From: Candidatus Obscuribacterales bacterium
Lineage (GTDB): Bacteria; Cyanobacteriota; Vampirovibrionia; Obscuribacterales; Obscuribacteraceae
Direction: 5' to 3'
DNA length: 64,000 nt
Assembly: GCA_965228855.1 (NCBI GenBank)
Contig: CBDDIJ010000005.1
Coordinates: 64,001-128,000, forward strand
Within the stretch, counting starts at the first letter, position 1; each line of letters begins with the position of its first letter. The notes beneath the pieces are model-generated. The model did not search any database. It had not been told where the DNA came from and worked only from the letters and a program-made list of their open reading frames with translations. Position numbers and translations under genes: made by a program. Below, one piece after another: positions 39,107 through 42,496 of this stretch.

Positions 39107-40497
39107 CAGTTTTCTCCCAATTGATTTTTCAATAGTTTTGATTTCAGCAAAAATGCTCCTTTGGTGGCGATCCGTTCGCCGCTACTCAAGCCACTTTTGA
39201 TCGCTACGAGGGTTCCATATTGTTTTCCGGCCACAACATCGCGTGGTTCAAAATCGCTCTTGCTCTTCTCGACGAAAACAACCGAGCGATCGCCAACTGT
39301 TTGAATAGATTCCGAGGGGACGAAAGTCCCGGAGACTGTTCCTGCGGGGCTAAAAGCAACCTCGACGAACGAACCAACTTTGACTTTATTATCATCGTTG
39401 TCGATCTCGACACGCACTCTGCCGGTGCGCGTGTCCTCGTTTAATCGTGGGTCAATGTAGTTGACCTTGCCTTCTAAAGTCAGCCCGTCAAAACTGATTC
39501 GGGCAGGCATCCCCAACGTGATGCTGCTTATTTTACCTTCGGGAACACTGGCAATTACCCATAATCGTTTTGTATTCGCGATGGTCAGAAGCGGTTTATT
39601 TGCTTCGAAACCGGCTCCGGGGTTAGCTAATCTCTCGATGACAGTGCCGCTTATAGGCGCATGCAACTCAATTGCGGAGATGTCGTGGTGTCTGCCATTC
39701 GATTCATTAGGAAGAGGCGCATCCAGAGCGCGCAGTTCGTCCTCAATGTGTTCCACTTCGGTTTGCGCTGTACTCAGCGCTGCGCGTGCCTCAGCGACCT
39801 CGCGGTTCAGCGAGATGTCCTTTTGGAAGTTGAAGTCCGCCTTTGCACGCTCGTATTCAGCTTCAGCTGCAACCAGATCCTTGCGCGCGCTCAGTCCCTC
39901 ATTGACCAGTTGGCTGATACGAGTCAGCGAAGCCTCGGTTTCCTCGAGCGTCGCTTTCGACTTCAGCAGAGCGACCTTGTTGGCCGATTGGGTCACGCGC
40001 TCCATGTTCTGCCTTGCCAATTTTGCACGCGTGTTGGCTTCGTGAAGTTTACCGTGCAACTCCGCAACTTGCGGACTGTCGATTGTCACCAGCAAGTCAC
40101 CTTTGCGCACCTGGTCACCAAGCGCAACAGCAATTCGACCAACGCGACCGGAAACAAGTGGTGTTATCTGCTGCAGTTGCTCTTGATTCGGCTCAACCAC
40201 GCCAGGTATCACGATATCAGCTGCTGGCGCAGTAGCCATCGCGGGAAGCGCTTTCACACCCGAAGCGATGCGCGTCTGAGCATCAAGCGAAATTAGACTT
40301 GAAGCCACCGCTTCTGGCAGAGAAACCGTTTCCGACGCTCCCGGCTCCGGTTCTTTCTGGCTCTGCAGATTCTGCCATAAGAACAAGGTGGCCAAGGCGC
40401 AGAGCAAGACGACACCAGCGGTGATTGCCCAACTTCTCGAAGTCTGGGTTCCATCGACGGAGCCACGATAGTTTTGAACTTGATTTGGAGCCAGCAC
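39106..40497 (-). CDS. czcB: RND efflux periplasmic adaptor (CzcB-like)
   Basis: N-terminal TM, lipoyl half-motifs (SGRV...GDQVRKGD; APISGTV), TRT..VRV, GL..GERI; SD AGAAAGGAG; abuts czcA. Confidence 0.88.
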   Translation of the reverse strand: MLAPNQVQNYRGSVDGTQTSRSWAITAGVVLLCALATLFLWQNLQSQKEPEPGASETVSLPEAVASSLISLDAQTRIASGVKALPAMATAPAADIVIPGVVEPNQEQLQQITPLVSGRVGRIAVALGDQVRKGDLLVTIDSPQVAELHGKLHEANTRAKLARQNMERVTQSANKVALLKSKATLEETEASLTRISQLVNEGLSARKDLVAAEAEYERAKADFNFQKDISLNREVAEARAALSTAQTEVEHIEDELRALDAPLPNESNGRHHDISAIELHAPISGTVIERLANPGAGFEANKPLLTIANTKRLWVIASVPEGKISSITLGMPARISFDGLTLEGKVNYIDPRLNEDTRTGRVRVEIDNDDNKVKVGSFVEVAFSPAGTVSGTFVPSESIQTVGDRSVVFVEKSKSDFEPRDVVAGKQYGTLVAIKSGLSSGERIATKGAFLLKSKLLKNQLGEN

Positions 40498-40571
40498 AAC
40501 AGCTCTCCTTTCTGATTAGAGACGACAAAAAAAATCGCAAGCGAATGACGCTCGCGAATAGATTCGCGTTT

Positions 40572-40976
40572 CTAGGTCAAAAGGAGTTGGTGTGAGGCAA
40601 CTAGAGTGGAAACTTTTAATGGAGGAGGAGGCGCGCGGGTGCCCTTCACCGCTCCCACATAGTCGGGAATGCGAGCGTAGCCGGCTTCTGGTTGGTAATG
40701 AACTGCAACCACGTCGCAATCGAAAAGGTAAACCGCAGGTGATACCACACTGGAATTTTGGGCGGAACAGCATGTGCTCGAATGCCCGCAGTCCGCGCAA
40801 GTGTCGCCCGAATCGCGAGGAGATAGGTCGATTGCTTGAGACTGGTAACCATTTCCAGTTTGAACATTCTGTTTATAAACATGCGCGACAATCTTCGGAC
40901 ACACGCATGCCGACCCGTTTGTCGCGAGCCACGACAAAACGAACATCAACATTACGACTATGGTTTTGGTTTTCAT
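40572..40976 (-). CDS. Exported Cys/His-rich leader protein with RAPP motif (DUF2946/CruR/CutF-like)
   Basis: Signal peptide MKTKTIVVMLMFVLSWLATNGSA, CVC, CADCGHSSTCC, GTRAPPPP near the C-terminus; 74 nt upstream of czcB. Confidence 0.75.
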   Translation of the reverse strand: MKTKTIVVMLMFVLSWLATNGSACVCPKIVAHVYKQNVQTGNGYQSQAIDLSPRDSGDTCADCGHSSTCCSAQNSSVVSPAVYLFDCDVVAVHYQPEAGYARIPDYVGAVKGTRAPPPPLKVSTLVASHQLLLT

Positions 40977-41131
40977 TTCCGGGAAGATTGGCTCTACATC
41001 TTGATTCATAGCAGATAACTCACAAGCTCGCAACTTCTTTCCGGTAAAAGTTGTGAGCCAGCCGAAACGAAATACCTCATGGATCCCCCTGATGGTAAAA
41101 GGTAATCACCAGTCATAGTCGCAAGGCATCC

Positions 41132-41536: not shown

Positions 41537-42496
41537 TCAATTGAGGAGTATTGAGCACTTGATTGCGTCGAGCACTCTCATCTGCTTCAGAGCGTCCTCA
41601 ACATCGAATTCAAGACTGGTATCATTTAAAGCCGCGTTCGAAAAATGATCAAACAGATTGAGATAGTGATTTGCCGCCGGCAACACTATCTCTTCTTCAT
41701 TCAGGAAGATCGAAGCTGTTTCATGGGGCTGCCAGGCCCGCGGGAAATAGATGCGGCCTTTCTCTCCCACAACCTCCAGATCTGTTCGATAAGGGAGATG
41801 ATAACCGGCATCAAAAAGAGCCCGTCCGGATGAAAATTCCATGATGCCACTAATATTGGTATCAACGTCCAGCTCTGCGTGAATGTCTCCACGCGCAAAA
41901 ACATTAGTGGGCTCCTCCGCAAAATAGTATCGCGCCGCACTGACCGGATAGCATCCGACGTCGAGCAAACAGCCGCCTCCAAGCTCTTTGTCCAGCCGAA
42001 TGCCTGTTTTGGCAGTCAGCAGGTAGGTGAATGAAGAACGCACCAGTCTAACTTTTCCGATTGCATCCTGGGCAATTAACTCTTTCGCTTTGCGATGCTG
42101 TGGATGAAACGGCCACATCATCGCCTCCATGACTTTCAGACCGGTACGAACAACCTCTGCCTTAACTCTGAGTAAATCGGTAACGTTAGTCGCAAAAGGT
42201 TTTTCAACTAAAACGTGCTTGCCTTTTTCCATCGCTTTGATCGCCCATTGGCAATGCATTGAATTCGGCAAGGGAATATGAACAGCCTCGATGTCAGGGT
42301 CGTCGAGCATGTGATCGTAAGAGTCATAAATTTCAGGCAGTGAAAACTGCTCGGCAAATTTTTCAGACTTCTCGCGCGTTCGGCTTGCAACTCCGAGAAG
42401 TTCCACAACAGGGGAAAGCATCATCGCCGGAATACTGCGCCGTCGCGCAAATCCTGAGCCGCCGAGCACTCCCCATTTCAACCGCCGCATAATCAA
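41537..42496 (-). CDS. Gfo/Idh/MocA-family NAD(P)-dependent oxidoreductase
   Basis: WGVLG, IPLPN..H, GKHVLVEKP, GGGCLLDVGCY. Confidence 0.92.
   Translation of the reverse strand: MIMRRLKWGVLGGSGFARRRSIPAMMLSPVVELLGVASRTREKSEKFAEQFSLPEIYDSYDHMLDDPDIEAVHIPLPNSMHCQWAIKAMEKGKHVLVEKPFATNVTDLLRVKAEVVRTGLKVMEAMMWPFHPQHRKAKELIAQDAIGKVRLVRSSFTYLLTAKTGIRLDKELGGGCLLDVGCYPVSAARYYFAEEPTNVFARGDIHAELDVDTNISGIMEFSSGRALFDAGYHLPYRTDLEVVGEKGRIYFPRAWQPHETASIFLNEEEIVLPAANHYLNLFDHFSNAALNDTSLEFDVEDALKQMRVLDAIKCSILLN

Follow-up and report, generated by a model that had tools for sequence, protein, structure and literature searches.

The 64,000-nt stretch of Candidatus Obscuribacterales DNA analysed here (the window, to whose coordinates all positions refer) contains a small leader open reading frame (ORF) followed, likewise on the (-) strand, by czcB and czcA, which encode a heavy-metal efflux pump of the resistance-nodulation-division (RND) class. 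Sequence comparison with relatives indicates that the leader and the RNA around its stop codon form a real, conserved switch, and the geometry of this switch predicts reversed polarity. The reading we prefer, with a probability of roughly 45%, is that the leader acts in cis as a co-translationally exported metal sensor of the CruR/CutF kind and controls czcBA with inverted wiring: a stalled ribosome would leave the pump genes off, and its release would turn them on. In the exported leaders with RAPP or proline motifs that are considered here (SecM-type, CruR, and CutF), a stalled ribosome turns the next gene on, and the present family would offer a natural test of off-switch wiring because its anti-Shine-Dalgarno (anti-SD) sequence lies ~30-40 nt beyond the stall motif. 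It also bears on a contradiction in the literature, as copper is said to release CruR yet to stall CutF.

The final 5-10 codons of the leader pair with the translation-initiation region of czcB (SD and start codon). In the fold of 40586-40505, the anti-SD CUCCUUUUGA (40586-40577) and the SD region UCAGAAAGGAG (40515-40505) formed 8 bp in the minimum-free-energy (MFE) structure and 10 bp with one bulge in the centroid, the latter being the helix of an original prediction made from the window sequence; at -34 kcal/mol (z -6.1), this fold was equalled by 0 of 200 shuffled sequences. The anti-SD/SD helix is the base of a longer rod (40600-40490; -43.5 kcal/mol, z -5.8, 0/200 shuffles), which between 40598 and 40490 also pairs the GTG region of czcB. 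A terminator-like hairpin with a U8 tract makes up the apex (-14.8 kcal/mol alone, z -4.3); neither the larger rod nor this hairpin was part of the original prediction, which had instead placed a small hairpin (40568-40553) between the two pairing strands. The small hairpin can form alone (-7.1 kcal/mol) but lies outside the MFE structure and is broken (-1.3 kcal/mol) in L065, an orthologue whose protein is 92% identical; it is probably incidental. Classical attenuation, in which this hairpin would be an antiterminator that forms while the ribosome stalls at RAPP (on) and is covered when the ribosome reaches the stop codon so that the terminator forms (off), is very improbable. The overlap of the small hairpin with the 5' arm of the terminator, the placement of its 5' strand 4-10 nt past the stop, and its retention in L002 would suit such a role, but it is far weaker than the terminator, the MFE folds of other orthologues contain no equivalent (they were inspected without a separate search for one), and the SD would remain shut anyway. 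We rejected the antiterminator role because L065 loses the small hairpin and retains the terminator.

Multiple comparisons indicate that the tail-SD pairing is conserved and co-varying. We assembled 45 distinct leaders, 27 of which immediately precede a czcB-type start; these made up the RNA test set, and the 18 left out were nine paralogues with a KWP/RWP tail, four leaders before an AbiEi gene, two before czcC-type genes, two with an uncertain downstream start, and one at a contig end. The set contains near-duplicates and reduces to 16 representatives with <75% tail identity. A MAFFT DNA alignment left the SD columns out of register, and covariation was judged by recoding and partner-swap tests. 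First, in 24/27 cases the native tail closed the ribosome-binding site (RBS) of czcB more tightly than synonymous recodings did. Second, the duplex between a leader's own tail and its RBS was better than those with swapped partners in 23/27; for the 16 representatives, the values were -15.3 kcal/mol for own and -12.8 kcal/mol for swapped pairs (permutation p 0.0005, a significance inflated by relatedness). Third, the bases that pair with the SD are in most cases found 8-15 nt upstream of the last base of the stop codon, and where the pairing register is shifted (L031 and L056/L079/L080), the sequence compensates for it. Finally, codon choice is skewed: the third-last residue is Leu in 25/27, with a CUC/CUU codon in 21 of these 25 (40% genome-wide), and the tail His is coded by CAU in 19/24 (46% genome-wide) and pairs with AUG in several folds. 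An in-frame pairing of the His codon with GUG in the window clade was dropped, since the MFE register there is shifted by two bases.

Where a ribosome must stand to open the czcB RBS was calculated by moving a footprint codon by codon along each of the 27 leaders, with hand-set start patterns, and computing the opening energy; per-base SD pairing probabilities separated the ribosome states poorly, and opening energies were used instead. The median cost was 15.7 kcal/mol for free mRNA, 14.4 with a ribosome at the motif, and 8.7 with a ribosome at the stop codon (19.0, 18.5, and 10.4 kcal/mol, respectively, for the window leader). A gain above 2 kcal/mol accompanied a stall at the motif in 2/27 and the stop position in 22/27, and the cost stayed at ~14-16 kcal/mol until the A site was 6-8 codons from the stop, when it fell to 7-9; footprints of 9, 12, and 15 nt gave the same picture. 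In this model, the SD stays shut during a stall at the motif because the anti-SD lies beyond the stalled footprint (in the window, the first SD-pairing base comes 38 nt after the A-site proline), and only a ribosome within ~6-8 codons of the leader stop opens the SD. The geometry of the original prediction, with an anti-SD beyond the footprint, held up, and CutF-like opening from the RAPP site is excluded within the limits of equilibrium folding.

The modelling also accommodates an opposite, CutF-type polarity, the main alternative, which we regard as somewhat unlikely. Here, metal would lengthen the dwell of the ribosome in the last codons, where it would hold the anti-SD open (stall = on), with [RK]APP perhaps acting from within the tunnel. 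Such a pause would fit the opening of the SD exactly when the ribosome occupies the last 6-8 codons, a tail of 16 residues after the motif in 19/27, and the persistence of the hydrophobic tail beyond RAPP, since KWP paralogues and L062 retain it; like endings occur in two unrelated exported small ORFs that head other CzcA/CusA genes of the genome, whose MFE folds show no pairing of the tail with the czcA SD. There are precedents as well, since other upstream ORFs (uORFs) are described as arresting when a stop codon occupies the A site (PMC10987492), stalling is the on state in the published SecM-type, CruR, and CutF accounts cited here, and in CutF, the closest exported analogue, metal stalls rather than releases the ribosome (PMC9973294; bioRxiv 10.1101/2025.02.05.636593). 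By contrast, RNA pairing, as reflected in the Leu and His codon biases, accounts for much of the tail, whose length varies from 12 to 17 residues while the Cys-to-motif spacing remains 53-54 in short-tailed members, and mapped RAPP arrests, that of CruR among them, all have the motif's prolines in the P and A sites (PMC12992588). If the tail is the real pause, this would suggest a second, termination-type arrest element common to several leader families.

On the preferred reading, that stalling is off and release is on, the ribosome in the absence of metal would pause or arrest at [RK]APP, 16-17 codons upstream of the leader's end; the rod would remain shut, czcBA would be off, and, where the U-tract is good, uncoupled polymerase would terminate at the apical hairpin. 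A metal ion (Zn, Co, Cd, or Ni being the likely candidates) would bind the Cys/His cluster, which at the stall would lie 43-55 residues from the peptidyl-transferase centre, and the chain would fold and pull the ribosome out of its arrest, in the way suggested for CruR. The freed ribosome would then reach the stop, melt the anti-SD, and trail the polymerase into the hairpin, where it may suppress termination, turning czcBA on. An efflux pump is expected to be metal-ON. Pairing and geometry were computed; arrest, metal binding, and metal-driven release we infer. Coupled ribosomes can antiterminate intrinsic terminators (PMC7858274). Our literature search found no metal leader with stall-off logic.

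The leader proteins have features expected of such a sensor. Among 28 aligned leaders, C60, C63, H65, C69, C70, and C26 are invariant, giving five Cys and one His in 28/28, and C24 is present in at least 90%; the linkers are unalignable. Nevertheless, the last Cys lies 43-48 residues from the motif in 27/27 (50-55 from the CxxC), and fixed spacing over a divergent linker is expected of co-translational sensors. The motif itself is RAPP in 15, KAPP in 10, KSPP in one, and KAPL in one of the 27 czcB leaders (consensus [RK][AS]P[PL]), with Asn always preceding the Lys form and Trp directly following the motif in 13; the RGPP and KSPP variants match substitutions tolerated at the Ala of RAPP. RA[PG]P has 73 matches in the 55,382 stop-to-stop segments of the genome, and RAPP near an ORF end is not rare by itself; the leader RAPP is non-chance because it is conserved. 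RAPP occurs only eight times in the long ORFs of the genome against 23.5 expected (0.34). Both the constant spacing across a divergent, low-confidence linker and this avoidance of RAPP in the proteome speak against a third explanation, which we consider improbable: that there is no metal switch and the leader product is a small exported protein that binds metal or forms disulfides, in a CzcI-like role, the rod only linking czcB translation to that of the leader or reporting export or redox state. This explanation would suit the degeneracy of the motif (KAPP, KAPL, or absent), six Cys that could make three disulfides, and four RAPP leaders that precede an AbiEi antitoxin gene rather than a metal gene.

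Several observations weigh against metal-released arrest. First, Arg is replaced by Lys in 12/27 orthologues, although all 19 substitutions of this Arg weakened arrest in ApcA, ApdA, and ApdP, where it is irreplaceable (PMC12992588); because of this requirement, the Lys-form leaders would be either weaker pauses or a different kind of arrest. KAPP is also barely depleted in long ORFs (0.84 of expectation). Second, APP, PPW, and PPN are strong proline-stall triplets that are strengthened by an upstream K or R (PMC5811046), and the motif may act as an APP/PPW pause sensitive to elongation factor P (EF-P) instead of a RAPP arrest. Third, nine paralogues and one czcCBA leader have the Cys cluster and tail and lack the motif, and a Fur-box-like site at the KAPP leader L059 before czcCBA misfits simple induction by metal excess. 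Fourth, the RNA evidence is uneven: an approximate terminator score is positive in only 10/27 orthologues (~six independent lineages), the window leader taken alone is equalled in RBS closure by 8 of 60 recodings, and L006, L007, and L008 gain no RBS access at the stop. Finally, metal-induced stalling of the CutF type would turn the pump off here. The fuller version, in which arrest keeps the genes off at both the anti-SD/anti-start helix and a ribosome-proximal terminator, metal release turns efflux on, and NKAPP arrests without Arg in nearly half of the family, is slightly less probable; NKAPP arrest would not be expected from the ApdA/ApdP mutagenesis. The metal-ON switch of the original prediction, opposite in logic to CruR, keeps its geometry and an SD that is shut at the stall, but the Lys forms, the RAPP-less paralogues, and the unconserved small hairpin count against it; its expectation of conservation in orthologues was likewise borne out for the co-varying pairing and a RAPP-type motif and failed for the Arg and in the paralogues. 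The natural variants (RAPP or NKAPP, tails of 12-17, with or without terminator; n=27) and the RAPP-less paralogues make testing cheap.

CutF-cutO of Rhodobacter capsulatus is likewise a small Sec-exported Cys leader with a proline motif, with a stem-loop that occludes the SD of the metal-detoxifying gene downstream and a metal-ON output (PMC9973294; bioRxiv 10.1101/2025.02.05.636593), and CutF-like genes have been listed before CusB/CzcB, CusA/CzcA, and OEP genes (PMC9973294). With these and RAPP uORFs before CzcB/CusB-type adaptors already published, the novelty originally claimed was overstated. In CutF, however, PPP lies two residues from the end and copper-induced stalling melts the stem, whereas here the motif lies 12-17 codons from the end, modelled stalling leaves the SD shut, and the leader is distinguished by six Cys plus His, a divalent-type RND target, and the terminator-like apex. 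Measured by the rules used for CutF-like proteins, the window leader is below 150 aa (134), has a hydrophobic N-terminus, is followed within 1000 nt (74) by a gene on the same strand, and, by folding and covariation, has a stem-loop over the downstream SD. The filter for the last 15 residues passes over it, as its last proline is residue 119/134, its final 15 residues are proline-free, and PP falls just outside; only short-tailed members (tail 12-13) pass, and a stall at the proline motif does not open the SD in the folding model.

CruR of Bordetella pertussis (Bp2923, DUF2946/PF11162) also has an export signal, CxxC, and RAPP, with a CxxC-RAPP spacing of 45 residues conserved within 1-2 (PMC9426467), compared with 50-55 residues from CxxC, or 43-48 from the last Cys, in the present family. 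Its release by metal has been proposed (PMC9426467) and its arrest shown (PMC12992588). RAPP in CruR is three residues from the end, and CruR acts through Rho-dependent termination, by which an importer is switched off, unlike the anti-SD rod and efflux pump found here. The profile hidden Markov model of PF11162 matched neither the leader, nor any of 10 aligned members, nor the locus (genome search, E <=10), so that a relationship to DUF2946, for which the original prediction had proposed this check, was not borne out. Similar small secretory uORFs with RAPP or RGPP, including ApdA/ApdP, were surveyed by Fujiwara et al., EMBO J 2025 (PMC12992588). In the parts of that survey compared here, uORFs before RND periplasmic adaptors have RAPP in 620 and AAPP in 148 cases (16-fold enrichment), and those before CusA/CzcA in 50 and 7; <=7 residues follow RAPP in 48 of 53 rows before RND adaptors (53 of 329), and two of the five long-tailed exceptions have a similar hydrophobic tail. 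A long tail is a minority layout and not unique to the order Obscuribacterales, and the Arg that these peptides require is present in the window leader and in 15/27 leaders, with Lys in the other 12. In Cupriavidus metallidurans, a czc RND operon is preceded by a further small CutF-like ORF, CzcI, a suggested metal-sensing regulator; compared by its description only, it differs in being described without a C-terminal proline motif (PMC9973294). The leader resembles CruR and CutF in design but falls outside both groups formally, with no PF11162 match and PP outside the last 15 residues. The literature and supplements searched do not describe this leader family, although published protein lists may already hold members.

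The czcA product has ZneA as its best PDB match (732 bits; CusA, 655), and Gln, Thr, and Glu align with the methionine positions of CusA, which we take to be M573, M623, and M672, a triad absent from pumps of the divalent type. With ZneA as the closest relative of solved structure and other residues in place of these methionines, a CzcA/ZneA-like pump for divalent cations is the better reading of the sequence than a CusA-like one, in agreement with the original prediction. The operon lacks czcC, and the genome encodes eight pumps of the CusA/CzcA family above cut-off, as well as EF-P. Coordinates of the leader, RNA, and pump features are listed below; the ORF, the CxC, CxxCxHxxxCC, and RAPPPP motifs, and the coordinates stated in the original prediction are correct.

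Features of the leader-czcBA region of the window.
Feature	Position	Strand	Details and basis
Leader ORF, founding member of the CutF/CruR-like family	40572..40976	(-)	134 aa; ATG at 40976, stop 40574-40572
Putative signal peptide or signal anchor, ~residues 1-23	40908..40976	(-)	Hydrophobicity and AlphaFold helix; basic N-terminus
CxC motif, C24 and C26 (residues 24-26)	40899..40907	(-)	Sequence
CxDCxHxxxCC cluster, residues 60-70, putative metal or thiol sensor	40767..40799	(-)	CxxCxHxxxCC pattern in sequence
RAPPPP, putative arrest or pause site	40620..40637	(-)	RAPP at 40637-40626; 17 codons follow RAPP
Pairing strand in the leader's last codons	40577..40598	(-)	40598-40588 opposite czcB start region, 40586-40577 anti-SD; MFE and centroid
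Small hairpin	40553..40568	(-)	Overlaps terminator 5' arm; -7.1 kcal/mol alone, 8/200 shuffles as good
Terminator-like hairpin and U8, rod apex	40527..40557	(-)	Hairpin 40557-40535, 9 bp (6 G-C), begins 15 nt past leader stop
SD of czcB, AGGAG	40505..40509	(-)	7 nt before GTG 40497
czcB-like RND periplasmic adaptor, 463 aa	39106..40497	(-)	PF16576 E 8e-41; TIGR01730 above cut-off; TIGR00999 best match but below cut-off
czcA-like heavy-metal RND transporter, 1046 aa	35966..39106	(-)	TIGR00914 1282 bits, cut-off 701
Candidate promoter-like site	41005..41033	(-)	TTGCGA, 17 nt, TATGAA, TG ahead of second hexamer; by eye

The family appears to be undescribed and restricted to the order Obscuribacterales. 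Its profile matched 36 of 107 genomes of the order, and 62 representatives were found among 1.84 billion proteins, whereas a phylum sample beyond the order gave nothing convincing in 400 other genomes (401 including the window's own): the family was seen only in its own genome, and two other matches were weak and in unrelated frames. No Pfam or NCBIfam family matched the leader, and a single-sequence homologue search returned only three close relatives. The ESM Atlas provided leads only: at 0.95, clusters of small proteins without names, of which one carries the automatic label 'Copper resistance protein', and, at 0.94, DUF8199/DUF6769, with which few features were shared. When czcB was searched against 41 genomes, 13 places matched at E < 1e-100, and a family leader heads the operon at all 13, with [RK]APP in 12. 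At 11 places the leader is directly upstream of czcB (two are cut by contig ends), and at the other two a czcC-type gene precedes czcB and the leader stands ahead of that gene. Synonymous and non-synonymous codon differences in close pairs (11/6, 3/6, and 15/18) are weak evidence of purifying selection. At the N-terminus, Kyte-Doolittle hydrophobicity is 2.7 across residues 6-18 of the window leader and 2.2-3.6 in 26/26 complete orthologous leaders, and AlphaFold models a helix at residues 3-21 (pLDDT ~90); the model of the whole leader is poor (mean pLDDT 58.7, pTM 0.28).

The leader may have its own promoter, as suggested by a weak terminator-like hairpin (41287-41274, (-) strand) between it and the upstream oxidoreductase gene (41537-42496). 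A consensus promoter scan gave 0 matches, and a TTG-17-TGn-xAxxxT layout similar to the window's candidate site occurs upstream of several orthologous leaders. An imperfect 11-bp inverted repeat (41058-41048/41036-41026) overlaps the promoter-like -35 and is a possible operator; it is kept in L002 and L065 and was not seen in remoter orthologues.

Related and unrelated leaders were noted in the course of these searches. The RAPP-less paralogues, such as G000:C2:1747611-1747991 (L071:1612-1989 +), combine the same Cys cluster with the ending [KR]WPCxxxYLAKQxLLI; the others are in L064, L070, L072, L073, L075, L084, L085, and L087. A Fur-box-like site lies ~70-100 nt upstream of them, the gene that follows is either an ORF resembling a methyltransferase (PF13489, E 0.002) or a member of the Fur family (PF01475), and several of these leaders divergently adjoin a czcB leader. 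A hybrid leader (L059:1453-1869 +, G003:C4) joins NKAPP to the RWPC...YLAKQ tail ahead of a czcCBA-type operon. The RAPP leaders in L054, L057, L069, and L078 are followed by the AbiEi antitoxin-like gene (PF13338) with no czcB, and in three of these four cases the same genome has a second, czcB-linked leader. The window's genome also encodes an unrelated exported Cys-rich RAPP leader (G000:C3:302771-303199 +, L034:1308-1697), with 12 residues after RAPP and the same long-tail layout; the SD and start that its tail pairs with belong to the gene of a secreted Cys-rich protein (152 aa) that matches no Pfam family. In L020 (G017:C200) and L025 (G005:C271), His-containing small exported ORFs without RAPP precede other RND adaptors and end in YIRLRALLI or LYILKRSLLI. 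The two exported small ORFs noted above for their similar tails (G000:C3:3355484-3355825 - and G000:C5:599207-599602 -) are related to one another, have no Cys cluster, and end in LWL..[KH].A[LF]L[IC]; long structured spacers of 184 and 243 nt separate them from the czcA/cusA genes that they head.

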